DNA from: Candidatus Poribacteria bacterium
GTDB lineage: Bacteria > Poribacteria > WGA-4E > WGA-3G
Assembly: GCA_963665235.2 (NCBI GenBank)
Contig: CAXXLX010000001.1
Span: forward strand, 2,432,001 to 2,496,000
Direction of reading: 5' to 3'
DNA: 64,000 nucleotides
A program made the translations under genes and the position numbers. Below the pieces are notes generated by a model. That model did no database searches. It worked only from the letters and a program-made list of their open reading frames with translations, and had not been told where the DNA came from. Positions 48,893 to 64,000 of the stretch are shown in pieces (the first letter of the stretch is position 1; every line of letters starts with the position of its first letter).

Positions 48893-50950
48893 CTATTCCG
48901 GTATTTTGTTCATGGAAGAGATTTTATCCCAGTCCCACAAAAGTACAGTTCCATCTTTAGAACTACTTGCAAGCGTTTTGCCATCGTGAGAAAATCGGAG
49001 CGTTTCGATTTCATCTGAATGCCCGGGATAAGTAGCCAACCGCTCTGCTTTTTCCAGATGCCATAATTCAACTGCATAAATAGTATCATTTCTGTTCATT
49101 ACTAGTCTGTTCCCAGTAATGCCAACAAGGAGGGTTTTACTATCTGGGGAGAATGTTAAGGTATTCACCTTTGCCCACTTGAGTTGAATCAGATGCTCAG
49201 TAAGAATTGTACTGGGTTTTCGCCCGGTGTTAAGATTCCATAAATGGATTTCGGTGTGAGTGCCGATAGCAAGAATAGTGTTATCAGGTGAAAATGCCAA
49301 GCTCTGGGCACTTCCGATAGCAAGTGTCGCAAGTTTTTGACCTGTGTTTGCATTCCACACAAGGGTTTCGTTGAAATTTCCGCCTGTAGCTAGGAGCATA
49401 CTATCTGGTGAAAATGCTAACATCCTGTCACGAACCTTGGGAAAGCTCACGGTTTCACGTCCAGTACTCACCTCCCATAAACGTATTCCGCTAAAGGCTG
49501 TAGTTGTGGCGATTAGTCTGTTATTGGGAGTGAATGTTAGTGTATCCGGTCTAAATTTTACTTGGAGCGTGTCGATTTCGACTCTAGTGTTCAGATTCCA
49601 TAACCGAATTATATTAACATTTCCCCATCCGGCGGTGCGTCTCTCAACATGGTATCCGTTTCGTGCAGATACAATTGCAGCATGGGTTGGACTCATGTTA
49701 ACAAAGAGGGAGGCATCTGATGAAAGAGCCATTGCTTGGGTCAGCGCGATAGGTGCTACAGTAAATGAATTTAGTTTATCTCCAGTGTTGATATCCCATG
49801 TTTGGATTTTTCCATTAAAGGTCGCGGTGACACATAACTTGTTGTCCGGTGAGAACGCAACTGCCCGTGTGTCCATTATGTGTTCTGTAGCAATAATAGA
49901 CAATTCTTTACCTGTGTTTACGTTCCATAAGCGGATGGTACCATCTAGACTACCGCTTGCAAGTGTTTTCCCATCGGGTGCAAAGACGAGTGTATTGATA
50001 GTATGCGTATGCGCTTTAAGTGTAGTACGGAGTTGTCCTGTATGAGCATCCCACAAATGTATTGTTTTATCAATGTCACCACTTGCAAGGGTAGAATTAT
50101 CTTCAGTAAACGCTATGGCAGTAATCCATCCATTGTGTCCTTTGAGCGTAGCCCGTTCGGTGTGTGTGGCAGTATCCCACAATCGTACTATCCGCTTTCC
50201 ACCGCCAGTAGCAACGGTTTTGCCATCAGCTGAAAACGTCAGGGTCATAATTCCATGGCTGGCTCTGCGTTTCTCTTTATTTGCTTGCTTTAAAAATTGA
50301 AGAACAGATTTCGTTTTCCGAGTGAGAAAACCTTCTTGTTCGAGGGACTTTAGCGGCAATAAAGTAATTTTTCCATCTCGAGTAACACCAGCAAAGGTAC
50401 TATTATCTCTAGCACAAGCCAATGGACCGCCTACACCAGTACTTTCCTTTTGCAAAAGTCTTCTTCCGGTAGCAATCTCCCAGCGTATAAGGGTGTTTTC
50501 TTCAAGCCAATTGGCATGCAAGCCGATGAGGTTTTTCCCATCCTTTGAGAAGGTAAGGGCTACACCATCAATATTGGGATGAGAACGGAGAGTTTGAATG
50601 TTTTTACCTGTTTCCAGGTCCCACAACAGAATGACTGGACTGGAACACCCACTACTTGCAAGAATACGGCGGTCAGGGGAGAGCACTATATTGTCAACGC
50701 CACCGGGATGTGGCGTGAGTATATTCTTCACGTCTCCGGTGTTAACATCGTAAATCCAAACACCGATATCGGTACCTACGGCAAGCTGAGTCCCATCGGC
50801 CAAAAACTGCATTGTGGTAATTTTACCTTTACCGATGCGAGCTATGGCTCCGTTGGGTAAGTTAATTTGTGATTCCTGCTGCGCGTAGATAGGTGGCAGC
50901 AGCATCGAAACAGATAGGAACACAATACAAAACATTCGTTTTATCGCCAT
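48893..50950 (-). CDS. Secreted WD40-repeat protein
   Basis: Signal peptide, LPNGAIARIGKG, repeated FSPDGxxLASG...LWD units. Confidence 0.9.
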   Translation of the reverse strand: MAIKRMFCIVFLSVSMLLPPIYAQQESQINLPNGAIARIGKGKITTMQFLADGTQLAVGTDIGVWIYDVNTGDVKNILTPHPGGVDNIVLSPDRRILASSGCSSPVILLWDLETGKNIQTLRSHPNIDGVALTFSKDGKNLIGLHANWLEENTLIRWEIATGRRLLQKESTGVGGPLACARDNSTFAGVTRDGKITLLPLKSLEQEGFLTRKTKSVLQFLKQANKEKRRASHGIMTLTFSADGKTVATGGGKRIVRLWDTATHTERATLKGHNGWITAIAFTEDNSTLASGDIDKTIHLWDAHTGQLRTTLKAHTHTINTLVFAPDGKTLASGSLDGTIRLWNVNTGKELSIIATEHIMDTRAVAFSPDNKLCVTATFNGKIQTWDINTGDKLNSFTVAPIALTQAMALSSDASLFVNMSPTHAAIVSARNGYHVERRTAGWGNVNIIRLWNLNTRVEIDTLQVKFRPDTLTFTPNNRLIATTTAFSGIRLWEVSTGRETVSFPKVRDRMLAFSPDSMLLATGGNFNETLVWNANTGQKLATLAIGSAQSLAFSPDNTILAIGTHTEIHLWNLNTGRKPSTILTEHLIQLKWAKVNTLTFSPDSKTLLVGITGNRLVMNRNDTIYAVELWHLEKAERLATYPGHSDEIETLRFSHDGKTLASSSKDGTVLLWDWDKISSMNKIPE

Positions 50951-51291
50951 TTGTTAGTTCTCCACAAGGTTGTAGGGGTTGGACATCTTCTTGTATGCTA
51001 ATTTTCGCAGCGTATTCAGGGAAAAGGATTTCGTAGCGTTTCAGTTAACTCCAAATCTCTATTGGCTCCCTATCAATATAGGACGGACGCAGCGCGTTGA
51101 TGAGTCGATAGGATAATAGGATTTAGAGGGAGACCTAGCGGGCGAGGGGACCTCGCCCCTACAATGCGGTTTCTGATGTTCAGTATATCATTAATCTTCG
51201 AGGAATGTCAAATTTTTTATGAAAAAATGCTGATTTTTACGGAATTCCGCCGCGCCAATGCGTAAACTTGTTTATGGGATTTTTCGACAGG

Positions 51292-52044
51292 TTATATGTC
51301 CAACGGCACCACGTCGGCATATACATAGGTGGGTGCGGATTCGGTGTGAATTTGATCATCGCTATCTTCGGAGGCCGACACAATAGCTCTTTGCACGATT
51401 CTGCCCGGTTTCGCGGCAATAGGCGAATGAAACATCGGGCCAGCAATGACACATGTATGGAACTCGCCATTTTCCCCAAGCGGGTCTACGCCATCGGGCA
51501 AATCGGCGATGAGGTCCGTATCAAACCAGCGTCCTGCTAAATCAGCGGGAACTTTGGTGGGATTGAGAGCGGTGACAATTGCACGCAAGCCGGATGCAAT
51601 CATCGTTTGCGCGAGCTGCGTTGTGTCCTCTCCCCAGACCGGAAAAATAGGTGTGAAGCCGGTGCCGCGCAGCTTCTCCTCTCGGTATTCACGGATGTCC
51701 TCAAGAAACAGATCACCGAATGCAAAATGGGAGGCGGTCATATCCGCTGGCAACGTTGCCACTTCTGCAAGAAACGCGCGCATCGCGGCTTCGTATATCT
51801 CATTAGAGCACGGGTACGGAATCGGTATCTGGTACAACGGCACACCGAGCTTTTCCGCTTGCTGTTTCAGCACCCAGCCGGGGGTGGAATGGATAGAAAC
51901 CCGGTCAAACGTCTCCGTGACGGTGGTAAAAATGCCGCGCACGTCGTATCGTTCCGGTTGTTGACGCAGTGTGTGAAGTGTCCACGCTGAATCTTTGCCT
52001 GAAGACCAGGAGACCAGAACTGGGGTGGGTGTTATGTTGTTCAT
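51292..52044 (-). CDS. PP-loop ATPase, Dph6/MJ0570-related
   Basis: SWSSGKDS, FGDLFLED, DPLGENGEFHT. Confidence 0.88.
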   Translation of the reverse strand: MNNITPTPVLVSWSSGKDSAWTLHTLRQQPERYDVRGIFTTVTETFDRVSIHSTPGWVLKQQAEKLGVPLYQIPIPYPCSNEIYEAAMRAFLAEVATLPADMTASHFAFGDLFLEDIREYREEKLRGTGFTPIFPVWGEDTTQLAQTMIASGLRAIVTALNPTKVPADLAGRWFDTDLIADLPDGVDPLGENGEFHTCVIAGPMFHSPIAAKPGRIVQRAIVSASEDSDDQIHTESAPTYVYADVVPLDI

Positions 52045-52140
52045 CTCTTTTGCCGTGTTAGTACCATTGAGGTTTTACCGTGCATCAACTGCTCCGCGCG
52101 GACAACCTCAATGATACACTAAGGATAAAAGCAGAAAATC

Positions 52141-54339
52141 TTATTTCCGTATTAACATCTTGCGCGTAACGGTGAAATCGCCTGCGGTGAGGGTATAGAA
52201 ATACACGCCGCTTGCAACAGACTCACCGAGTGCGTTTTTGCCATCCCAATAGGCGGCACGGTTTCGACTGTGATAAATACCGGCACGTTGATGTCCTAAG
52301 TCTAAATCCCGCACGACGCGGCCGTTGATGTCATAAATCGTCAACTTTACGTCTGATGCTTTGGCCAGTTGGTAGGGTATCCAGGTCTCTGGGTTGAATG
52401 GGTTTGGATAGTTCGCTAAAAGTTCGGTCTCTTTAGGTGTTAGTGCTGCCAAGAGCTGCTCTAAAAAGAGAATACCCTGTTGAAAGGTTGCATCTGTCAA
52501 ATTTAGCTTCTGGGCTTGGGATAGCCACTGCTGTACATCCGATTTTCTAAACATGTTTTCATAGCGCGCCCAAGCTGCTGGTGCAGCAGCCTTATTACCC
52601 AATGCGCCTGCAACTAACACCAGATCCACAATATCAATAATCCCATCCTTATTGACATCTGCCGGATTGCGCGGACCAGGAACAGTAGACGTGATATTAT
52701 CCAAGATATCATACCAAGCACGTTGCTGACTACTAGATAAACCACCACTGCTATCTGCTGCTAAATCAAGTTCAAAATTTAAAATGCTAATCATAATCAG
52801 GTCGTCGATATCAATAACCCCATCCTTATTAACATCTCCTATTTCCATTATGTGTGTTACAGAACTTTTACCGAAACTTGCGGCGACGAGTGTCAAATCT
52901 AAAATGTCTACAACACCATCAAGGTTAACATCCTCTCGTAGTCGTGGCCCCCCAACAACCATTGAATTTACTTGATCAAAGTGGGGAAGGTGTTTACCAA
53001 CACTATTAACTATTCTTGAGCTGGACAAGGTTAGGGTTGATTCTTTGATAGCAATAAATTCAAATGTTAGGGTTGCAAGAGTGCCGTCACCGCTGCTGCT
53101 GTCATTAACAGAGGTCGCGCCAAGTAGAACTTCATTTCCATCGACAACTGGGGCCACAAAAAACGAATCGTCCGGTAAATAATCTCCGTTCGCACTTGAA
53201 ACATAGCGAAGTGCCGTTGTATCGAAAAGCACCTTAGCTTGAAAACCAGTGATGTCTTTACCTGAAGTAATATTGATGTTAAGAGTTAGCCTGTCTCCGA
53301 TAGCTGCGGCATCTATTGGTAATGCCGTGATGTTCACACGGGTAGCAGGTGCCTTCCACAATCGGATGGTTTTTTCAACACCTCGGATGGTTTTGTCAGA
53401 ACTCCCACTTGCCAGCATTGAACCATCCGGACTGAACGATACGCTCCTGACCCTATCCGTATGCCCCGTGAGTGTTCTGATGTGTTGTCCCGTAGTCGCA
53501 TCCCACAAGCGGATGGTTTTGTCAGAACTCCCACTTGCCAGCATTGAACCATCCGGACTGAACGATACGCTCCTGACCCTATCCGTATGCCCCGTGAGTG
53601 TTCTGATGTGTTGTCCCGTAGTCGCATCCCACAAGCGGATGGTTTTGTCAGAACTCCCACTTGCCAGCAGTGAACCATCCGGACTGAACGATACGCTCCT
53701 GACCCAATCCGTATGCCCCGTGAGTGTTCTGATGTGTTGTCCCGTAGTCGCATCCCACAAGCGGATGGTATTGTCAGAACTCCCACTTGCCAGCAGTGAA
53801 CCATCCGCCGGACTAAACGCTACGCTATTGACCCAATCCGTATGCCCCGTGAGTGTTCTGATGTGTTGTCCCGTAGTCGCATCCCACAAGCGGATGGTAT
53901 TGTCCCCACTCCCACTTGCCAGCAGTGAACCATCCGCCGGACTAAACGCTACGCTACTGACCCAATACGTATGTCCTGTGAGTGTTCTGATATGTTGACC
54001 CGTTGTCGCATCCCATAAGCGGATGGTGTCGTCCCCACTCCCACTTGCGAGCAGTGCCCCATCCGGACTAAACGCTACGCTCCAGACAGAAGCCGTATGT
54101 CCTGTGAGTGTTCTGATATGTTGACCCGTTGTCGCATCCCATAAGCGGATGGTGTCGTCCCCACTCCCACTTGCGAGCAGTGCCCCATCCGGACTAAACG
54201 CTACGCTCCAGACATAATCCGTATGCCCTTTAAGAGTCGTATAGGAAATCTCGTGGGCAAAGGTGTTGGGTAAATAGATCGTTAAAATCAGAAGTATCAT
54301 CAAAGAAATGGAAATTTGCGTTTTTTTCATTACAAACAT
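52141..54339 (-). CDS. Secreted WD40 + cohesin + dockerin-like + FlgD-Ig/T9SS-like C-terminal domain protein
   Basis: 7 near-identical WD40 repeats; GDGTLATLTFE cohesin-like domain; three DVNxDGxxDIxDL motifs; LLANYPNPFNPETWIPYQL. Confidence 0.88.
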   Translation of the reverse strand: MFVMKKTQISISLMILLILTIYLPNTFAHEISYTTLKGHTDYVWSVAFSPDGALLASGSGDDTIRLWDATTGQHIRTLTGHTASVWSVAFSPDGALLASGSGDDTIRLWDATTGQHIRTLTGHTYWVSSVAFSPADGSLLASGSGDNTIRLWDATTGQHIRTLTGHTDWVNSVAFSPADGSLLASGSSDNTIRLWDATTGQHIRTLTGHTDWVRSVSFSPDGSLLASGSSDKTIRLWDATTGQHIRTLTGHTDRVRSVSFSPDGSMLASGSSDKTIRLWDATTGQHIRTLTGHTDRVRSVSFSPDGSMLASGSSDKTIRGVEKTIRLWKAPATRVNITALPIDAAAIGDRLTLNINITSGKDITGFQAKVLFDTTALRYVSSANGDYLPDDSFFVAPVVDGNEVLLGATSVNDSSSGDGTLATLTFEFIAIKESTLTLSSSRIVNSVGKHLPHFDQVNSMVVGGPRLREDVNLDGVVDILDLTLVAASFGKSSVTHIMEIGDVNKDGVIDIDDLIMISILNFELDLAADSSGGLSSSQQRAWYDILDNITSTVPGPRNPADVNKDGIIDIVDLVLVAGALGNKAAAPAAWARYENMFRKSDVQQWLSQAQKLNLTDATFQQGILFLEQLLAALTPKETELLANYPNPFNPETWIPYQLAKASDVKLTIYDINGRVVRDLDLGHQRAGIYHSRNRAAYWDGKNALGESVASGVYFYTLTAGDFTVTRKMLIRK

Positions 54340-54498
54340 TCTCCTTTTTGGATTTGTATTTTCGGTCTAACGGGTTTGCGTTCGATATTTTAACTCAAGT
54401 TGCCATAATGATAGCATGGTTTGAATCATAGGTCAAATAAAATTTGCGATTGGGTGGTAAAGTAGGGGCGGGGTTTCCCCGCCCGATTAGAAACCTCA

Positions 54499-55062
54499 CT
54501 ATAGTGCCAAAAAGTTTGCTAAAAGACTCTTCCCAGCAGCAGTCAAAATAGACTCCGGATGAAACTGAACTCCCCAGACAGGCAGTGTTTTATGCCGAAG
54601 TCCCATGATTTCGTCCTGAGCTGTCCATGCGGTAATTTCCAAGCAATCTGGCAATGTGTCTTTTTTCACAATGAGCGAATGATAACGCGTCGCTTCAAAA
54701 GGGTTATCCAAACCGTCGAAAAGTTCTGTGCCGTTATGCAGTATCATTGAGGTTTTACCGTGCATCAACCGCTCCGCACGGACAACCTCACCGCCAAACA
54801 CGTCCCCGATACACTGATGCCCGAGGCAGACCCCCAGAATTGGCACTTTTCCAGCGAAATGTTTTATGACATCGTTGGATATGCCCGCTTCCCGTGGCGT
54901 GCAGGGGCCGGGTGAAATAACGATGCGTTCGGGAGAAAGCGCGTCTAACGCCTCTATACCTATCTTTCGGCTGCGATGAATTTCTAATTCAGCGCCGAGC
55001 TCTCCCAAATACTGCACGAGGTTGTAGGTAAACGAGTCGTAGTTGTCAATCATCAAGACCAT
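54499..55062 (-). CDS. trpG: Anthranilate/aminodeoxychorismate synthase component II
   Basis: [29 protein letters not shown]. Confidence 0.92.
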
Positions 55063-55073
55063 CTTTTTGCCTC

Positions 55074-56612
55074 CTATAACAACAGGCCGTGTTCTGCCAT
55101 CTCAATAGCTCTGAGCACGGCACGTGCCTTATTCATGGTTTCATAATACTCATTTTCGGGTATGGAATCAGCAACGACACCTCCACCCGCTTGCACGTAA
55201 GCGATGCCATCTTTGATGACAGCCGTTCGAATGGTTATGGCTGTGTCGGCACTGCCAGAAAAACTGAAATAACCGACTGCCCCGCCATACGTACCCCGAC
55301 GTGTCGGCTCTAATTCGTCAATTATCTCCATTGCGCGGATTTTAGGTGCCCCAGAGAGTGTCCCTGCCGGTAAACAGGCACGCATAACATCAAAAGCGGA
55401 AACATTCTCGCGCAACCGTCCGATAACATGCGATACAATGTGCATCACATGTGAGAAACGTTCGATTATCATCAGCTCGGTTACCTCAACGGTCCGATAT
55501 TCACACACCCGGCCGAAGTCGTTTCGTCCTAAATCGACGAGCATGACGTGTTCTGCCCGTTCCTTCGGATCATTAATAAGTGTCTGTGCTAGTTCGTGGT
55601 CTTCCTCGGTTGTCTTACCGCGGGGACACGTGCCGGCTATTGGACGGTGCTGTGCAATTCCATCTTCTACCCGTACCATCATCTCTGGCGATGCACCCAC
55701 AATGTCAAAACCACCCAGCTTTAAATAGTACATATATGGGGAGGGGTTGACTACTCGCAATGCCCGATAAATATCAAACGAGTCAACGGATACCGGGCAG
55801 CTAAATCGCTGTGAAGGCACAACCTGTATGATGTCGCCTGCGGCGATGTATTCTTTGGCGCGCCGTACTGCGTCTTCGTAAGCGGGTTTTGTAAAATTTG
55901 ATTGTAGCACGCGTGAGGATTTAGACAGCTGTTCAACCCCCATGTTCTCACTATCTGTAGGATTGGTTTGTCGGGTTTCTCTATGTTCAACCCGACCTAC
56001 AAGATCGGGAAAAACCTTTAGTTTTTCGACCAATGCATCAATTTTCTCTATAGCCTCAGCGTAAGCTGCATTTACATCCCCGTCAATATGTGCATTAGCG
56101 ACAACTTTAATCTGATGATTTACATGATCGAAAATTAGAATTGTCTCTGTGAGCATGAAAAAGCAATCGGGGAGCTGCAGTTCATCTTCGGTCTCATCGG
56201 GCAGTTCTTCGACAAAGCGCACCATGTCGTAACTCATATAGCCGACTGCCCCGCCGTGGAACTGCGGTAACCCTTCAACTTCAACGGGGTGATATTTCTG
56301 CATCATGTCTTCAAGGACTTGCAGCGGGTCATCGCAGGTTAGTGAAACCTTCTCCCCTTTTGACAGATATTCGATTGTTACCTGATGTCCTTTGCTGTGA
56401 AAAAGCACAGAGGGTTGACTTCCGAGAAACGAGTAGCGAGCGACCGTTTCGCCGCCTTCAACGCTTTCTAGCAAGAACGCAAAGGTATCGGGCATTAATT
56501 TGTAAAAGGCGGACACCGGTGTCTCCATATCCGCCAAAATTGGGCGATAGACCGGTATCATGTTGCCTATTTTCGCTTTATCCTGAAATTCCTCCAACGT
56601 CGGATAATACAT
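55074..56612 (-). CDS. trpE: Anthranilate synthase component I
   Basis: [37 protein letters not shown]. Confidence 0.95.
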
Positions 56613-56627
56613 GGATGTCTCCTTTGG

Positions 56628-56757
56628 CGATTAGCAATTGGCGATTAGCGATTAGCAATTGGCAAGAGAAAGAAGCCTCTGACGCGCATCAAAATTGTAG
56701 TCAGAATCACAAACTCTTGCTATTAGCCAATTGCCATTAGCCAACAGCCACTAGCCA
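56628..56757. repeat. Heptamer-flanked dispersed repeat
   Basis: (GCGATTA/GCAATTG)n, 60-bp core matching 42092-42158 inverted, (TAGCCAA)n. Confidence 0.7.
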
Positions 56758-57138
56758 TTAATACACTGCATCTGCTTCAAAAATTTTTTCACCTATAACA
56801 CGCGTTGCCGTTCCGTCGGGGGAGACTTCCCGAAAGAAGCAGGAACGGTAGCCGACATGACATGCTGCTACCTTCTGCTCAACCTTTATGAGCAGGGCAT
56901 CTCCATCGCAATCCACTGCGATAGATTTGACTGTCTGTGTATGCCCTGAAGTCTCCCCCTTTCGCCAGAGTTTTTGGCGGGAGCGGCTCCAGAAACAGAC
57001 ACGGCCGGTAGTCAGCGTCTCTTTTATCGCCTCCGTATTCATATAACCCAGCATCAACACTTCGTTATTTGTGTCGTCTTGGATTACTGCGGCGACTAAT
57101 CCATCGTTGTCATATTTTAGTTCGGATAAAATTTCCAT
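56758..57138 (-). CDS. hisI: Phosphoribosyl-AMP cyclohydrolase
   Basis: [33 protein letters not shown]. Confidence 0.96.
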
Positions 57139-57162
57139 GATTTCTCCTTAGGCTGTCATCTT

Positions 57163-57206
57163 AAAAACAGAAAACCTCATGCCACTGCGGGGTGTGCATA
57201 AGGTTT
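57163..57206 (-). terminator. Attenuator terminator upstream of hisI-trpE-trpG
   Basis: AAACCTTATGC(A)CAC-CCCGCA-GTGGCATGAGGTTT followed by TCTGTTTTT. Confidence 0.75.
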
Positions 57207-57245
57207 AAAGGTAACGTCAAAATCGGTATTGACAAATTCGCTTGC

Positions 57246-57338
57246 TTAGCGCGCACACTCCCCCTTATCGGAATTGGAATGCCACCAATGCCAATCGTGT
57301 CCATTTGTATTTAGAGCGGAATATGCAGCAAATAACAT
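57246..57338 (-). CDS. His/Trp-rich leader peptide MLFAAYSALNTNGHDWHWWHSNSDKGECAR
   Basis: AAGGA RBS, ATG at 57338, CAC GAT TGG CAT TGG TGG CAT at 57299-57279, TAA at 57248-57246. Confidence 0.8.
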   Translation of the reverse strand: MLFAAYSALNTNGHDWHWWHSNSDKGECAR

Positions 57339-57422
57339 CGTTTTTTCTTTCCTTATTTGAGATTCATTGTAATTACAAAATCTACCATAGCTCGCTGCAC
57401 TTATGCGGAATCTGAAGTTGAT

Positions 57423-57656
57423 TTATCGATGGGCCTCCATATACGCTCGAAGCACTGTATTCATCCGCGTGTAGTAATCTTGCCCTTGTGCTTTGAACCA
57501 TTCCAAGATTTCAGGTTCAATCTGAAGGTAATTTTCAGGAACAATCCGCCGAGCATTTTCCCAAAAATCATCGGATAGTTCAGGGATTTCTGACGTATCA
57601 ATTGCGTCCTCAGGCAAGTCCTCAATTTCAGAGAACCGTGTTTTTGACAGCTGCAT
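57423..57656 (-). CDS. brnA: BrnA-family antitoxin
   Basis: IDTSEIPEL, ILEWFKAQGQDYYTRMNTVLRAYM; overlaps the toxin gene. Confidence 0.88.
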   Translation of the reverse strand: MQLSKTRFSEIEDLPEDAIDTSEIPELSDDFWENARRIVPENYLQIEPEILEWFKAQGQDYYTRMNTVLRAYMEAHR

Positions 57657-57954
57657 GGTATCTTCTCCTTTCTTTGAGGGTTGCTTTTCTGGCGGAGATA
57701 ATTTGTGTCTGCCCGTTCCTATTTGTGTGACAAACTACCAACACCGCGCCACCTCCAAGCGTTCCAATGGTAATCTCTCGAATCTCGGTTCGCTTGTGTT
57801 CATCGTAATAATCTCTGGGGTCGACTCTCGTGAAATGAACACTTTGAAAAATACGTATTGCTTCTTCAAATCGAATTCCATGCTTTTTGAGGTTCATTCG
57901 GTTTTTCTGCGTGTCCCACTCAAATTCCATTTCTATAACGCTATCCCGGTTCAT
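57628..57954 (-). CDS. brnT: BrnT-family toxin
   Basis: FEWDTQKNRMNLKKHGIRFEEA, IISARKAT..ERRRY. Confidence 0.9.
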   Translation of the reverse strand: MNRDSVIEMEFEWDTQKNRMNLKKHGIRFEEAIRIFQSVHFTRVDPRDYYDEHKRTEIREITIGTLGGGAVLVVCHTNRNGQTQIISARKATLKERRRYHAAVKNTVL

Positions 57955-58073
57955 TTATAGTAAAATCTGAAAACACGTTGCGTTGACAGTGCCAGGGAAA
58001 TTAACCACCCTGCCTCGATGTCGAGAGGAAAACCAAAGATTGAGGTCTCCAAATAATTGTAGACTTGACTGTA

Positions 58074-58102
58074 ATTATACCCTATTCCCAGGCGAATGTC
58101 AA
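58074..58102 (-). promoter_or_regulatory. Consensus sigma70 promoter toward brnT
   Basis: TTGACA-N17-TATAAT on the minus strand. Confidence 0.75.
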
Positions 58103-58118
58103 ATTTTTCAGAAAAAAT

Positions 58119-58148
58119 TTGACAAAAAATGGGATAATGTGGTATAAT
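58119..58148 (+). promoter_or_regulatory. Consensus sigma70 promoter for the riboswitch operon
   Basis: TTGACA-N18-TATAAT with TG extended -10. Confidence 0.75.
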
Positions 58149-58175
58149 TAACTTGTAAACAATTAAATAAACGAA

Positions 58176-58362
58176 CGGTTCAGGTGCCGGATTACGGAGA
58201 ATAGGGAAGAGCGGTGAGAATCCGCCACGGCCCCGCCACTGTGAACGATTAATGATTTCCATAAAAAACGGGAAATTTTTCGCTGGCAAAAACCACTGTC
58301 AAAAATTGAGATGGGAAGGTGCAAGCGGAGATGTTCAGAAGTCAGGAGACCTGCCTGAATCG
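58176..58362 (+). promoter_or_regulatory. Cobalamin riboswitch
   Basis: CAGGTG...AATAGGGAA.GCGGTGAGAATCCGC.ACGGCCCCGCCACTGT...CCACTG...GGGAAGG...B12 box AGTCAGGAGACCTGCC. Confidence 0.93.
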
Positions 58363-58452
58363 TGTTTCACGCTTATGCTTTCGCGGGAAAGCGAGGAAAC
58401 AAAGCACAGCGAGCTCTTGTTAGGTTCAGATGTTCACAACGTGCTGTCTTGT

Positions 58453-58489
58453 CCCCTGTTTTCCATAGAAAGCAGGGGTTTCTTGTTTC
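58453..58489 (+). terminator. Putative riboswitch expression-platform terminator
   Basis: CCCCTGTTTTC-CATA-GAAAGCAGGGG followed by TTTCTTGTTT, just upstream of the GGAGG RBS. Confidence 0.65.
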
Positions 58490-58504
58490 ATTACGGAGGT
58501 TTTA

Positions 58505-59782
58505 ATGAATACAATCTTTTTCCTACGGCGGCACTTCTTATGCACAAAACGTTCACGGTTTCACACGTTTCTATTGATAAGCACACTACTTTTTATGCTC
58601 CTGATGGGTTCTGCTTTCGGACAAACCGAGGTTCAGAACATAGCGGTTGTTGTAAATGCGCTGACGCATTTTGACTTGGGCATCACCACATCTCTCTCCA
58701 TTATAGATTTAGCAGAATCGGATGCAAAGCGGGCTGTTACGAACGATGTTGTCCCGCTCGGCAATGTGCCGAACGACCTTGTGATTCGTGGGCATCTTGC
58801 CTACGTAACCAACGCCTTTAGTGACAATATCCTGATTATCAACCTACAGCACCGAGAAATTGTCGACACGATAGCATTCCGTTCAGGCGCGAATCCCCAA
58901 AAACTCGCTTTTGTAAACGAGAACAAGATGTATGTCACCTGTGAGGGGGCCAATGAGGTGCATGTTGTAGATGTCGCTGCGAGACGTGTGACGAAGACGA
59001 TTATCGATATATTCAATAAACCTTTCGGTATCACGATTCTCAACGGGAAGGCGTACGTGACAAATTCTGCCTGGGAATATGATGTGGTGGAAAAGGCAGT
59101 CCGTTATCATCAGAGCAGTGTCACCGTAATTGATACGGTAACGGACACCGTCCTAAAGACAGTTCCGATGCCAACAAACGCCGGGGAGATTCTCAACGAT
59201 GGCGAGTCTACTGTTATTGTCAAAACAACAGGCGATTACAATCTCATTCCTGGAAACCTCGTTTTCATTGACTCGACGACTGATGAAATTGTCAAAACGG
59301 TGAAGCTGAGAATGACCCCAGGGTCTTTTGCAATCAATTCACAGAAACACCTATTTATTCAGGGAAGATTTCCAAGCCGAGGCCTCTTCATTTACGATGT
59401 AGTGGATATGAATTGGATTCGCGGGCTGTATACGCCAATCGTAGATGAGAATGATGGCTGGGGAATGACTTTTGCCCCAGATGACACTCTCTACATCGCT
59501 TATCCCGATTGGGGTGGAGGCGGTCAGGATGTCGTTCGTGTTCTGGGCACTGATGAAACATTCCACCAAACGTACCGGGTTGGGCATGGGGCTTCCATTG
59601 TGGCAATTGCACAACTCGTAATTCGGCCTGAGGATGTCAACGACGATGGGCTGGTTGACATAAGGGATTTAGTGATGATCAGTCAGAATCTCGGGCAAAG
59701 GGGGCAAGGAGTCCGTGGCGATGTTAATAAGGATGGCAAGGTTGATATTCTCGACCTAGTTCGTGTTGTTCAGCATTTCTAA
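58505..59782 (+). CDS. YncE/YVTN-type beta-propeller with C-terminal dockerin-like domain (candidate cobalamin-binding protein)
   Basis: Signal peptide (AFG-Q), AYVTN and MYVTC repeats, two DVNxDGxVDIxDLV motifs; first gene after the riboswitch. Confidence 0.8.
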   Translation: MNTIFFLRRHFLCTKRSRFHTFLLISTLLFMLLMGSAFGQTEVQNIAVVVNALTHFDLGITTSLSIIDLAESDAKRAVTNDVVPLGNVPNDLVIRGHLAYVTNAFSDNILIINLQHREIVDTIAFRSGANPQKLAFVNENKMYVTCEGANEVHVVDVAARRVTKTIIDIFNKPFGITILNGKAYVTNSAWEYDVVEKAVRYHQSSVTVIDTVTDTVLKTVPMPTNAGEILNDGESTVIVKTTGDYNLIPGNLVFIDSTTDEIVKTVKLRMTPGSFAINSQKHLFIQGRFPSRGLFIYDVVDMNWIRGLYTPIVDENDGWGMTFAPDDTLYIAYPDWGGGGQDVVRVLGTDETFHQTYRVGHGASIVAIAQLVIRPEDVNDDGLVDIRDLVMISQNLGQRGQGVRGDVNKDGKVDILDLVRVVQHF

Positions 59783-59832
59783 CGCGGATGGTTTATGGAG
59801 TATCAGGGTTATTTCGTTTAAGGTTTTGGACT

Positions 59833-61816
59833 ATGCGTAAATGGGTCGTGCTCGGGAGCTCGCTCCTACTTTTAACGTTGCTCCTCACTGGGTGTACACC
59901 GAAGTCGGAAGATGCTTCCCTGGCATGGCAGATTACGTTTTTTCCGCTCGGTGCCAAGATACAGTTTGAGCAACGAATCGCCGGTGGCGCAGGTTTCAGC
60001 CTTTAGTGCCGATGGAACGTTGGTCGCTCAACTCAATTTTCCCACACCGCCGCGTCAGATAGAAGTGCTTTATTTTGAATGGCGCGAGGCGGAGGTGTAT
60101 AGATTTGAGGCGACCTTATCCACTGGACAGGTTCACGTCCAAAGTGTGACTGCGCCCCGTGAACCTCCCCGCGGCAGCATAGAACTTGCTATTCCTTACG
60201 GCGTAGCACAGAAGATAGAGGCGGTACATTCCGCCGCTGAACCCCTCACAAAGGCACTTGTCTTACAAGGAGGTGAAATGACAGCCACGGTCGTCGTCAC
60301 GAACGGAAATGCACCGAGTGCGTTTGAGGTAGAGCTCTGCCTCCCCTCAACGTTTTCCATTGTTCAGGTGCCTATAGGTTGGAAATCTGAAACAACTGGT
60401 GCCGAAACCTGTTTGTCTACGACTGGCACATTTCGGATTACCTCGGAGGTCTACTATCGTGAGTTCGTTCTAAAGATTCCTGTAGAAAACACAGTGCCGA
60501 ACGGTGTTCAGGACATGCCTGTTACAATTAGAGGGAGGGTTCGCTTTAAAACGGATGCAGGCGAGATATCCGAACAGACAACATCGGTAATGTTGAACAT
60601 GGCGACGATTTCGGAGATTGCCGGGCATCTCTCTATAGAATCTATTCAGATGCCTACGGATGCGGTGGGCATCGCTGCCCTTCAGCAGCGACCCGATACC
60701 ATCGTTATGTTACGGAAACCTACGGAGAATGTCTACTATCGTTGGTTGGAAAAATTTGGAATAAAACCCCGCACCTCCCAGATTGATGTGTTTGAGCCGA
60801 TAGCTCACCAGACAGTGCGGCTCCGTAATCGGAGCGAGGAGACTATCCATGTCGTTGTCTCTTCCATCAATCGAGACGCGAAGAGTGGCGAGCCTCTGCT
60901 GTTTCTTGCACCGCCGGACGCAGTTAGTGCGGGTACCGGACAGAGTGTCGCTTTCGCCAGCTTACCGGGTGAGACAGTGACAGCCATTCCTTTGCCTCTC
61001 TACCTTCATCCACAAGCAGCTAAGGCGGGAACATACCAGCGGGAGATTGAGGTAAAAGTCTGGGGAAGTAATGCCACAATTCTTCGGGAACAACGACCAC
61101 TCTATCTCATCGTCCCGAATAGACATGCGCTGTTTGTAAGTATGGTGGCTATTGTTGTCAGCGGTATCGGATTGGCAGTGCTTCTGTGGTTTCACCAACG
61201 ATTTTTTGCCCGTTGGACAACGAAACAACTTATCGTCATTGCACTCTTCGGTACAACGATTTTTGTAACAGTTGTCGTACCCTCAACACTGTTTTTGAAC
61301 CTCATCCGCGCACTTCTCGGCCCCTTTGCTGGGTTGTTGAGCGGACTGATTAACGAGACACTCTACTATGCGTTGCTGACCGCGTTGCTTATCTATATTA
61401 ACGGTGCCCCCAGCGGTACCCGGAAACAAAGACACAATAAATTGTGTGATGATGTGCCAAATATGCAAGGCGGTGTCATCCTACTTGTCTCTGCTGTCCG
61501 CTTACTTCTCGGCGGTGTCATGTTTGGCAGTTTCACGCCGATGGAAATTGTCTATACTGGGACAAGTGTCATCCTGCTTGAGACAGGATTCCTACTTGTT
61601 CGAAGGCGTGGTTTATTTGCATGGGCGTTCGTGCTCGCTATATGCGATGCAATCGCTGTATATGTTGAGTTCCAGCTCTCTATCCTGTTCTATCGTCTCT
61701 TTTTCGCCGATTGGTATATCGTCCTTCGAATTATAGTAGAGGGATTCACCTATACCTTTATCGGCGTACTTCTGGGGGCAAGGTTGGGACGTGGATTGTG
61801 GAAGGTGGCTGAATAG
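59833..61816 (+). CDS. Lipoprotein with large extracytoplasmic region and multi-TM C-terminus resembling an ECF S component; one frameshift near 59965
   Basis: Lipobox LLTGC in the 59788 ORF; body in the 59912 ORF; about 6-7 TM helices starting WTTKQLIVIALFG. Confidence 0.65.
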
Positions 61817-61874
61817 ACATGGATAACTTATGTTACGAAAACCTTAGGAGCGGGCTGCTTGCCCGAATATTGAA

Positions 61875-63530
61875 ATGAAAAAACATCAAATTTTTAGCAT
61901 CGTCTGCCTGCTTATCGCTTGGCATCTCAACGGGGCGGCAGCCGATATCGATGTCATTTGGGTTCGAGCAGGGGCAGTGCTTGAAATCCAGCAGGAACAC
62001 AACGTCGATAGTAAAATCAAAGTCGAAATGATGACTAATGGAACAGCACGTGAACTTGCTAAAACGCCAACAGTCCTGCGGATTGATGCTAAACGTGTCC
62101 TACTCCAATTTACATGGAAACCGAACCAACGTTATCAGTTTCGCCTAGAGAGGCATGTAACAGAGGCGACCTCGCCACTCAAACCGATGCCCTACTTAAT
62201 TCGTACGGTGCAACTGGATGGACTCTTATCGCTTTTGGAAAATCTCAGGCAGCCAGCGAAACCGACAACGGTCCTGTTTTCACCGGATGCGGAAAAACTT
62301 GCCATTGCAACCGACACCGGACACCTTGCAATTCTCCAACCGCTCACTGGCGAAATCCTTTGGAAAACCCGAATCTCCGAGGGCTATGTCAAATACATGG
62401 CATTTAGCACAGATAGCACTCGACTCTACATTGGCGAGCAGGCAGTGGATGGGTTTATCTATGCATACGACGTGTCGCAGTCTAAACCGACACGTCTCTG
62501 GAAATATCGCACAGCTGACGACATTGAAACCTCAACGCCGACTAATCCAGAAAACGTCTATGCCTGGATTAGCTACCCCGGTCCATCGTGCATGCGAACG
62601 CTAGCGAACGGTGACCTACTCGTTGCCAGCGTACACACATGGACTCAAAAGGACATATCGCATAGACAGTCTCAACTTTACCGGTTCAACGGGAAAACAG
62701 GCGAGCTCAGATGGAAATGGCCACGGGATGGGGCATTGCCGCGGATACTCCGTTGGTTTGACATCAGTGCTGATGGAAAAACACTCCCGCTTGTAACGGA
62801 TAAAAGCCGCCTGGGCAACGGAACGCTCTCTGTGCTCAATACTGAAACAGGAACAACACAGTGGCAGGCGAGTTTTGAACCGCTCACGCCATACTTTGAG
62901 GGTGTTAGTTTTTGGCGGGGAGTCAGTATATCACCGAATGGGAAGTTTATCAACATTACAGTGGATGATGGCCGTGCATACATCTTCGACGTGAATAAAC
63001 AGAAATCGATATGGCAGGACAATTTAACCACACCGCTTGAAATGGGTGGCATTCCAATCGTTGCAACTTCCGGCACGATAGGTGCAACGGATGCAGCCGC
63101 CCTCTTTGTAACAGGCGATACATATATTCCGTATCATCTCCAAAAGGGAGCACAACGGCCCTCGGCACTGCATCCAAACGGCATGACATTGTTTGCCTAT
63201 TCTTGGGAAGGGGAGAAAATATGGCAGTGGAAACTTGAGAATATGCCCCAAGGTTTACGAATTGATGGAAATGACCGATATGCTGTCCTTTCTGTCTCTA
63301 AAAAGAGCCGAAATCCGAATGAACACCTACACGGCGTTTCGGTATTTGACCTCACAGCGGCCGGCGGTGGCCTGTCGAAATATCTTTACACTTACCGCAC
63401 CGAGGGACAACTGCCCTATGATACGCTTGCTATCAGCGCGGATGGCAGTCTCATCGCTGTAGTTGAAATGCCGATTACGATGCCTGATAAGACCGTGCGC
63501 GGAAAAAATCGGGTGCATGTGCTATATTGA
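61875..63530 (+). CDS. Secreted PQQ/WD40-like beta-propeller protein
   Basis: Signal peptide, TGEILWK / TGELRWKW / GEKIWQW repeats, ISADG motifs. Confidence 0.8.
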   Translation: MKKHQIFSIVCLLIAWHLNGAAADIDVIWVRAGAVLEIQQEHNVDSKIKVEMMTNGTARELAKTPTVLRIDAKRVLLQFTWKPNQRYQFRLERHVTEATSPLKPMPYLIRTVQLDGLLSLLENLRQPAKPTTVLFSPDAEKLAIATDTGHLAILQPLTGEILWKTRISEGYVKYMAFSTDSTRLYIGEQAVDGFIYAYDVSQSKPTRLWKYRTADDIETSTPTNPENVYAWISYPGPSCMRTLANGDLLVASVHTWTQKDISHRQSQLYRFNGKTGELRWKWPRDGALPRILRWFDISADGKTLPLVTDKSRLGNGTLSVLNTETGTTQWQASFEPLTPYFEGVSFWRGVSISPNGKFINITVDDGRAYIFDVNKQKSIWQDNLTTPLEMGGIPIVATSGTIGATDAAALFVTGDTYIPYHLQKGAQRPSALHPNGMTLFAYSWEGEKIWQWKLENMPQGLRIDGNDRYAVLSVSKKSRNPNEHLHGVSVFDLTAAGGGLSKYLYTYRTEGQLPYDTLAISADGSLIAVVEMPITMPDKTVRGKNRVHVLY

Positions 63531-63680
63531 TTTTTTGTAGCACAATCGATTACTTCATGCCCTGGCTTACGCAAAATTGCAGAATATCGCTTAATCCAGC
63601 TGTAGGAGCGATTTCAAAACGCGCCTACCAGAGAATTGCACAAGTCCTAATTCCCTGATCAATTGCCATTTTTTTATCTG

Positions 63681-64000
63681 CTATAGGTTGTTCGATGGGC
63701 GTTCTTGTACCACAGGAATAACGTAACTCCGAATCGTCAAGCCATCTATCGATTCTGTCTCTGTTCGCGGTTCCGTTACTGCGCGGTGATCGAACACGAC
63801 ATAGTACCCCTCCGTTACGCCTTCTATTGCCAGATACGCGGCGAGTTGCTGCTTGCCTTGGGTATAACCTCTTTCACTTCTCCAAACCTTTGTTTCAACG
63901 ATATATTTTTTTTCGTTGTGAAGAATGAGCAGATCCATCCTGCCACGTCCGGTTGGAACTTCCATATACATTGCCCCGTTCACGCTAACAACGAACTGAT
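63681..64000 (-). CDS. C-terminal PD-(D/E)XK nuclease-like domain of a gene starting beyond the window
   Basis: GRGRMDL...YIVETK...QLAAYL...GYYVVFD; frame open to the window edge. Confidence 0.7.
   Translation of the reverse strand, partial: QFVVSVNGAMYMEVPTGRGRMDLLILHNEKKYIVETKVWRSERGYTQGKQQLAAYLAIEGVTEGYYVVFDHRAVTEPRTETESIDGLTIRSYVIPVVQERPSNNL

Follow-up and report, generated by a model that had tools for sequence, protein, structure and literature searches.

What does a ribosome read when it translates the short leader ahead of a mixed histidine and tryptophan operon? The question is raised by a 64,000-nucleotide stretch of Candidatus Poribacteria DNA (hereafter the window), part of a 5.3-Mb assembly, in which hisI, trpE and trpG are preceded on the minus strand by a 30-codon open reading frame (ORF) with interleaved His and Trp codons and by an intrinsic terminator. 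A preliminary description of this DNA had proposed ribosome-mediated attenuation, with a single leader reading the charging of both tRNA-His and tRNA-Trp. Comparison across the phylum makes it highly probable that the element is a ribosome-mediated transcription attenuator and that it is conserved phylum-wide. That the attenuator of hisI-trpE-trpG would read tRNA-Trp and tRNA-His charging together, as an OR gate, is the interpretation that the compared leaders favour, and we hold it with clearly less confidence. The parts of the leader, in the order of transcription, are these:

57350-57354, minus strand: AAGGA ribosome-binding site (RBS) of the leader ORF, read from the sequence and ending 11 nt ahead of the ATG.
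57246-57338, minus strand: leader ORF MLFAAYSALNTNGHDWHWWHSNSDKGECAR, 30 codons plus TAA, with its ATG at 57338; a homologue is found in 63 of 72 loci of the phylum.
57313-57327, minus strand: strand 1, the putative anti-antiterminator, UGCAUAUUCC-G-CUCU, which pairs with strand 2 in folds of untranslated RNA.
57279-57299, minus strand: regulatory run H14-D15-W16-H17-W18-W19-H20, of which the W-H-W-W core is conserved.
57267-57295, minus strand: local hairpin AUUGG-C-AUUGG / CCAAU-U-CCGAU enclosing the Trp/His codons, from minimum-free-energy folds.
57253-57264, minus strand: strand 2, the 5' strand of the antiterminator, GGGGGAGTGTGC (RNA GGGGGAGUGUGC), in the last leader codons, where a ribosome at the stop would mask it.
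57189-57197, minus strand: strand 3, GCACACCCC, the top of the terminator 5' arm and the loop, complementary to strand 2.
57163-57206, minus strand: intrinsic terminator AAACCTTATGC...GCATGAGGTTT + TTTTCTGTTTTT, an 11-bp stem with a 3-bp extension, followed by UUUUCUGUUUUU.

Re-reading of the sequence placed the 30-codon minus-strand ORF, its AAGGA and the run H-D-W-H-W-W-H where the preliminary description had put them. The terminator that it had drawn at 57206-57163, ahead of hisI, trpE and trpG, was recovered by sequence and folding, as was the complementarity of strand 2 (57264-57253) to strand 3 (57197-57189), and the three genes were recovered by NCBIfam. A leader ORF with its own start codon and RBS stands upstream of a biosynthetic operon, and its codon cluster is cognate to the products of that operon (W16, W18, W19, H14, H17 and H20 set against trpE, trpG and hisI). 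Relatives' leaders show a purine-rich stretch at the position of the RBS. A chance origin of the His/Trp run is not credible, because only ~0.002 windows of seven codons with three His and three Trp are expected per 64 kb in six frames (our own arithmetic, assuming uniform codons); codon usage in the long ORFs of the same genome is 2.3% for His and 1.4% for Trp.

How widely is this arrangement found? HisI was used to locate loci in 41 related genomes, and TrpE to locate them across the phylum, where 174 of 176 genomes gave a match. Seventy-two trpE/hisI loci were examined, from 30 of the 31 genera of the phylum sample (g18 left out), and 63 of them carry a Trp-rich leader and a terminator, the U-tract of the terminator hairpin lying 60-121 nt past the leader ORF. 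By this count, orthologous leaders preserve the ORF together with its Trp and His codons. The nine loci that lack a leader were dropped from all further counts: three in genus g2 (L011, L012 and L021), one each in g13 (L161), g12 (L168) and g20 (L173), and three cut by contig ends, whose upstream sequence is short (L165, 182 nt; L174, 56 nt; L197, 107 nt). The three g2 loci keep hisI-trpE and show no leader or terminator within 700 nt upstream; tandem GC-rich palindromic repeats occupy the place of the leader in L021.

The peptide outside the W/H core diverges completely between families (MLFAAYSALNTNG.. vs MQTLNRQPQFQIAS.. vs MPARIHTHGIL..), and what is kept is the cluster itself, the C-terminal region that encodes strand 2, and the terminator. 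Within its own genome, a motif search combining W-x-W-W with strands 2 and 3 found this locus only. A genome-wide scan for W- or H-rich short ORFs with terminators also recovered this leader and missed the leader before hisZ that is described below, and therefore the scan cannot support an absence of further attenuators. Among public contigs, those matching a DNA pattern derived from the leader and titled Candidatus Poribacteria all carry the leader ORF; pattern matches outside Poribacteria were dropped, as they look like chance or coding matches. Among those dropped, five Methylophilaceae contigs (L045, L065, L095, L116 and L117) match the leader DNA pattern at a constant spacing of ~41 nt, the matched frame reading YWHWW, or HWHWW in L117.

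Covariation had been named in the preliminary description as a test of both helices, and both bear it out. In a 22-genus alignment, 92.4% of the cells of the terminator stem are paired and seven of its 12 pairs have changed on both sides, a covariation score reached by none of 500 shuffles; slid controls pair at 47% or less. An intrinsic terminator thus separates leader and first structural gene across these genera. MAFFT misaligned strand 2, and because it aligns the antiterminator poorly, that helix was tested by energy. The 2:3 duplex, between the 3' part of the leader and the terminator 5' arm and loop, beats mononucleotide shuffles (p<=0.05) in 38 of the 63 leaders; the 25 in which the strand-2 shuffle test is not significant belong mostly to the G-rich f1 genus g6. 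In a 22 x 22 duplex matrix, own pairs average -17.96 kcal/mol vs -15.1 kcal/mol for pairs drawn from different families, and no permutation among 5000 was as low. For L013, L181, L166, L170, L172 and L180 the own strand 3 fits better than any foreign one. In six of the 22 (L010, L009, L030, L183, L164 and L189) it fits no better than most foreign ones, partly because fixed windows were used. The two strands change together between families: the paired cores are GUGUGCG/UGCACAC in f1, GUGUGCC/GGCAUAC in f2-f4, GUAUGCC/GGCAUAC in g8, GUGUGUCC/GGACACA and GGAUACAC in f11 and f10, AUGCCUGC/GUAGGCAU in f9, and GCGUGCCCG/CGGGCAUGC in f5.

Folding shows how these strands could compete. The minimum-free-energy fold of 57345-57150 contains the terminator and a helix of leader codons 4-9 with GGGGGAGUGUGC; its z score is -2.4, and five of 200 shuffles fold as well. 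In naked RNA, strand 1 (UGCAUAUUCC, codons 4-7) pairs with strand 2 and the terminator also forms. The same 1:2 pairing appears in folds of several relatives, at a position that varies among families. The CCAAU arm of the local hairpin is confined to family f1 leaders; this hairpin may be a pause or synchronizing hairpin, melted by the translating ribosome. A simple terminator scanner did not list the terminator hairpin, because its loop exceeds the scanner's limit of 3-8 nt.

When the leader 3' end was masked and unmasked in the folding, the predicted switch was seen, provided that the polymerase stood short of the terminator 3' arm. A ribosome footprint placed at W19 lets strand 2 pair with strand 3; one placed on the stop codon leaves strand 3 free and the antiterminator unable to form. 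In an A-site scan of 11 leaders, the Trp/His cluster lies just ahead of the boundary at which strand 2 becomes masked in all 11, and the antiterminator pairing is lost a few codons past the cluster, at codons 21-25 in the leader of the window. The scan, run with the polymerase ahead of the 3' arm, sets only the 3' boundary of the productive window; on this modelling the placement of the cluster is that expected of regulatory codons. W16 to H20 fall within the stall window that leaves strand 2 free, and H17 and H20 share it with W16, W18 and W19, ahead of a masking boundary at codons 21-24, as a leader responding to more than one amino acid would have it. The geometry of ribosome-mediated attenuation put forward in the preliminary description is upheld, in that antiterminator pairing is lost only past the Trp/His cluster and the helices covary between families.

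From these pieces a mechanism can be proposed, in which the folding order, the ribosome footprints, the starvation response and the contribution of the His codons are the inferred elements. As RNA polymerase transcribes the leader, a ribosome would be translating the 30 codons of its ORF. With both amino acids plentiful, the ribosome would reach the stop and cover strand 2 (GGGGGAGUGUGC), leaving strand 3 (GCACACCCC) free; the terminator would then form and transcription would end in the U-tract near 57169-57163. Scarcity of either Trp-tRNA or His-tRNA would stall the ribosome with one of the W16-H17-W18-W19-H20 codons in the A site, and strand 2, unmasked, would pair with strand 3 before the terminator 3' arm has been made, allowing read-through into hisI, trpE and trpG. 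If the leader is not translated, strand 1 (UGCAUAUUCC) would sequester strand 2 and termination would be the default.

Several observations weigh against this interpretation of the locus as an attenuator. The full-length minimum-free-energy fold keeps the terminator under every ribosome mask, and therefore the switch must be kinetic. The antiterminator helix does compete with the terminator, and a ribosome at the stop would mask its 5' strand, but the two overlap only in part: the antiterminator takes up the apical stem and the loop of the terminator and leaves ~9 lower base pairs untouched. In genera g2 and g13, which are hisI-first, no leader was found, and in g12 the leader is in decay, the frame in L168 lacking an ATG (judged by eye) and those in L163 and L167 retaining a single Trp. 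In the window itself, a simple promoter scan listed no canonical promoter in the interval that separates the leader from the BrnT/BrnA toxin-antitoxin pair upstream of it, and a 145-nt repeat-filled spacer parts hisI from trpE.

The RNA evidence comes from assembled contigs of two metatranscriptome runs (X1 and X2) of one study, which hold small shares only and include contigs nearly identical to the window; gaps in their cover of the operon carry no information. One contig of 178 nt covers 57345-57169, from seven bases ahead of the leader ATG to six past the terminator stem, and another of 182 nt covers 57319-57139, bridging the terminator up to the start of hisI. Their match to terminated and read-through forms is a weak hint, and against it stands that the contigs show neither ends nor strand and that DNA may be present in RNA libraries. 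A discrete 178-nt form would also fit a leader that senses no charged tRNA at all, in which the product would be a nascent-chain arrest peptide, a trans-acting peptide (..S-N-H-W-H-W-W..) or a small RNA, and the terminator would merely define the leader product. The peptide core is unusually conserved, non-Trp positions included, and in Sinorhizobium meliloti the RNA of the trpE(G) attenuator and its leader peptide are described, in the portions of the two papers drawn on, as acting in trans (PMC6614838, PMC7298713). However, the divergence of the peptide outside the core speaks against selection of this kind, conservation lying instead in how strands 2, 3 and 4 are placed with respect to the stop codon, and a role in trans would add to the attenuator and not replace it. 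We consider such a non-sensing leader very improbable, and a charged-tRNA attenuator remains the reading adopted here.

In this attenuator the Trp codons are universal (63 of 63 leaders), but is histidine read as well? The leaders can be divided by the gene that follows them, into a hisI-first set (57 leaders, 21 genera) and a trpE- or trpS-first set (six genomes; genera g9, g29, g30 and g31). A His codon lies no more than two codons from the Trp cluster in 54 of the 57 hisI-first leaders (mean 2.28), and where the cluster reads W-x-W-W the middle codon is His in 43 of 46 cases (CAT 41, CAC 2), with Cys, Pro and Tyr once each. The trpE- and trpS-first leaders read KRWWYT, RRWCH and SRWRHI in g9, FWRWWWR in g30, NWCWWWR in g31 and TWCWWR in g29; their W-x-W-W has CGT, TGC and TGC (Arg or Cys) at its centre, and His is absent altogether from four of the six. 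Strands 2 and 3 of g9 and g29 (GUGUGCC/GGCAUAC) are identical to those of the His-containing f2 and f3, and therefore the helices do not force His. The central residue is never Arg or Gln in hisI-first leaders, and its C is unpaired in the f1 hairpin; as far as the alignments go, the central His resists an explanation by RNA pairing.

Four of the five trpE- or trpS-first genomes searched have hisI elsewhere (38-47% identity), and G042, which is 88% complete, gave no match. In G030 and G043, the two genomes whose hisI flanks were read, the gene is monofunctional and no leader is visible. The phylum holds two kinds of hisI, one linked to the operon and 55-100% identical to that of the window, the other standalone at 38-47% (L201-L204); G033, of g12, has both kinds and a decayed leader. 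In L171 (G041, family f10), a Trp-only leader MISVIRLEKYIQGIGTWCWWRTEIGVCLKPG at ~290-385 is followed by trpS at 490-1488, judged by eye from its translation to be tryptophanyl-tRNA synthetase-like, and by trpE from 1501.

A second leader of the same genome offers a comparison from the histidine side. It was found by eye upstream of hisZ-hisG-hisS:

L040:11285-11332 = G000:C1:488284-488331, minus strand: His-only leader ORF MLTLFFLKHHHSLHS (KHHHSLHS).

A TTGACT-17-TATAAT promoter lies ahead of it and a long hairpin ending in U9 behind. Of 23 f1 genomes, 21 keep the ..HHH[S/P]xH.. leader, in every case without a Trp codon. Rfam at gathering scores returned no family in the trpB, hisZG and PRA-PH loci. 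Trp-only, His+Trp and His-only leaders each match their own operons, and therefore codon content tracks operon content; in the leaders compared, this holds in three operon types.

Could the His codons nonetheless be passengers? An ordinary Trp-only attenuator of the trpL type, in which hisI rides along and the His codons are neutral or by-products of constraints on the RNA, would have ready causes for them: UGG-CAY yields GGCAY, which mimics strand 3 (GGCAYAC), a CAC falls within strand 1, and the AU of CAU sits in the AUUGG/CCAAU hairpin. Much in the leaders agrees with it and tells against a second sensed amino acid. Relatives' strand 1, UUCACACUCC, holds a CAC that reads R-S-H-S and gives His in two of three frames. 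The codon that follows WW alternates between CAU and CGU/CGG/CGA (20 His against 21 Arg) while the pairing of GGCRU with strand 2 is kept, as expected if only that pairing matters, and the codon ahead of the first Trp toggles between H, D and N (NAU). When H14 occupies the A site, GCAUUCC further downstream is left free to sequester strand 2, and on this modelling H14 is for that reason probably not a productive stall codon. RNA pairing is the better explanation for several of the His codons, including H14 and the upstream CAC of relatives. Three hisI-first leaders go without His near the cluster (L189 of g7, ERWD, with one Trp and no His; L184 of g15, W-Y-W-W; L175 of g19, WWPWW, with His three codons upstream), and two of the three g9 leaders, which lack hisI, still hold one His each (L160, inside the core window; L162, by eye). 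One to three scattered His codons should also sense less than the HHH run of the hisZG leader; in the part of PMC1183508 drawn on, sensitivity falls with the fraction of regulatory codons.

The association of His with hisI comes, moreover, to about two transitions, the class against the outgroups f10 and f11, and g9 within f4, a count that rests on family and genus labels and TrpE identities; the relatives are not independent. The tool labels place f10 and f11 outside the class and g9 within f4, a family of the window's order, and the TrpE of g9 is 68-69% identical, a usual value for that order. The pattern points to one gain and one loss of His codons, roughly two independent events. What the Trp-only account leaves unexplained is the central codon, held as His by either CAT or CAC while its neighbours vary freely, and replaced in leaders whose strands 2 and 3 are identical but whose operons lack hisI; the outgroup leaders read W-R-W-W-W and W-C-W-W-W. 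This lineage also builds His-codon leaders for his genes, as before hisZ-hisG. Finally, under that account the only hisI match in the genome of the window, for an essential step of the histidine pathway, would answer to Trp alone. On balance we regard a Trp-only attenuator as possible, though less probable than dual sensing. Sensing of both amino acids, as the preliminary description had it, is carried by the His codons of the cluster, which track hisI in the operon, and by the His-only leader before hisZ-hisG; this support stops short of proof.

The distribution of the three leader types might reflect one ancestral scaffold whose codons were rewritten to match operon content, and we judge the following set of states, taken jointly, to be just on the probable side of even. 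The scaffold would be Trp-only before trpE or trpS-trpE (W-R-W-W-W, W-C-W-W), with a separate His-only leader before hisZ-hisG. It would be His+Trp where hisI was placed between leader and trpE (W-H-W-W, HHWHWW, GHHHWCWWH), and His would have been lost or reduced again in the genus in which hisI is out of the operon.

The genes served by the leader in the window, and the surroundings of the operon, are as follows:

57423-57954, minus strand: BrnT toxin (108 aa, PF04365) and BrnA antitoxin (77 aa, PF14384), directly upstream of the leader.
56758-57138, minus strand: hisI, monofunctional phosphoribosyl-AMP cyclohydrolase (NF000768, 174 bits vs a cut-off of 126), start codon at 57138.
56613-56757, minus strand: hisI-trpE spacer of 145 nt, a long inverted repeat of GCTAAT(C/G)GC / GCCAATTGC units; a dispersed repeat with no U-tract.
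55074-56612, minus strand: trpE, anthranilate synthase component I (TIGR00564, 585 bits vs a cut-off of 518).
54499-55062, minus strand: trpG, glutamine amidotransferase component II (TIGR00566, 272 bits vs a cut-off of 121).

The gene after trpG (52141-54339) encodes an unrelated beta-propeller protein with a type IX secretion system (T9SS) sorting tail, and therefore the unit is hisI-trpE-trpG. Elsewhere in the genome (G000) his and trp genes are scattered: hisZ-hisG-hisS occupies another locus, and trpB stands alone at yet another, behind a dehydrogenase gene and with no recognizable leader at that locus. The spacer repeat AATTGCTAATCGC occurs in 80 copies in the genome vs 0.2 expected, and spacer positions 56624-56668 show very high contig depth and many loose ends in DNA and RNA libraries alike. 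BrnT/BrnA occupy the place where relatives carry the promoter of the leader (TTGACA/TATAAT-like boxes). The nearest strong promoter-like site on the minus strand is a perfect TTGACA-17-TATAAT at 58102-58074, upstream of the pair, which might read through into the leader. Two perfect 12-of-12 sigma-70-type promoters in fact stand back to back within 58074-58148, this one and another at 58119-58148 on the plus strand. The latter leads into a cobalamin riboswitch (99.5 bits; 58165-58372, plus strand) upstream of a plus-strand gene at 58505-59782, whose 425-aa product has a dockerin domain, matches DUF5074 weakly and may be a surface protein connected with B12.

Attenuation through a leader peptide, a textbook mechanism described chiefly in Proteobacteria and a small number of Gram-positive groups, is here documented by comparative evidence across an uncultured candidate phylum. 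What appears new is the interleaving, in one leader, of regulatory codons for two biosynthetically unrelated amino acids, matching an operon of one his gene and trpEG. The phylum supplies its own controls in the form of Trp-only leaders without hisI and a His-only leader before hisZG, and suggests that one or two point mutations (from CGT or TGC to CAT or CAC) can let regulatory specificity keep pace with gene rearrangement. If true, the rewriting of leader codons to match operon content would be a natural demonstration of a single-leader OR gate across two unrelated amino-acid pathways, and attenuator specificity would evolve by single-codon changes after a change of gene order. For annotation, two previously unannotated cis-regulatory elements are defined, neither of which matches Rfam in the searches run.

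How, then, does the element compare with known systems? It works like the Rfam families Trp_leader and His_leader (which we take to be RF00513 and RF00514) without being a member of either; a cmscan of 50000-64000 at E<=1 returned the cobalamin riboswitch only and no match at the leader. Full-text literature searches found nothing on attenuators in Poribacteria, the matching papers being concerned with natural products of the RiPP class (ribosomally synthesized and post-translationally modified peptides), and no leader combining His and Trp codons.

As in trpL of Escherichia coli and other Proteobacteria, a short ORF with clustered Trp codons is combined with strands that pair 2:3 and 3:4, with a putative 1:2 pairing and with a terminator ahead of trpE; a ribosome at the stop masks strand 2, and since the terminator exceeds the antiterminator in stability, the choice is kinetic (the general trpL mechanism being taken from the part of PMC1183508 drawn on). 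Unlike trpL, His is here interleaved with Trp, hisI is the first structural gene, the host phylum is Poribacteria, no Rfam model matches, and antiterminator pairing involves the apical stem and loop of the terminator, not the whole of its 5' arm. The likeness to hisL is that His codons of a leader ORF would control a histidine-pathway gene, in a genome that also has the KHHHSLHS leader. However, there are only three His codons here (1-4 in the core of relatives), interspersed with Trp and again without an Rfam match, whereas the classic his design is a long His run; the his and trp designs are contrasted in the same part of PMC1183508, which names low usage of the regulatory codons as a source of hypersensitivity and makes sensitivity depend on their rarity and on the fraction they occupy in the control region. 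By analogy, these rules are compatible with a few His codons acting together with Trp, and argue for a weaker His response than that of a His-run leader.

The scattered trp genes resemble those of S. meliloti, where only the trpE(G) unit carries a leader and attenuator (trpL-trpE(G)); unlike here, no his gene or His codons are mentioned in the portion of that account drawn on, and trans functions are described (PMC6614838). Classical attenuators also precede trpS and leuS, according to the part of PMC1262725 drawn on. L171 is of this kind, with the same leader type (T-W-C-W-W, no His) before trpS and then trpE, and, being Trp-only, it serves as a contrast to the operons that contain hisI. A parallel for a mixed leader lies in the enterobacteria, where thrL (Thr and Ile) and the leaders ilvL and ilvBN (Leu, Val and Ile) exert multivalent attenuation from one leader ORF. 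The leader described here likewise holds regulatory codons for more than one amino acid in a single ORF, but whereas thrL and ilvL serve one connected family of pathways, its codons belong to two separate pathways and mirror the mixed hisI and trpEG content of the operon that follows.

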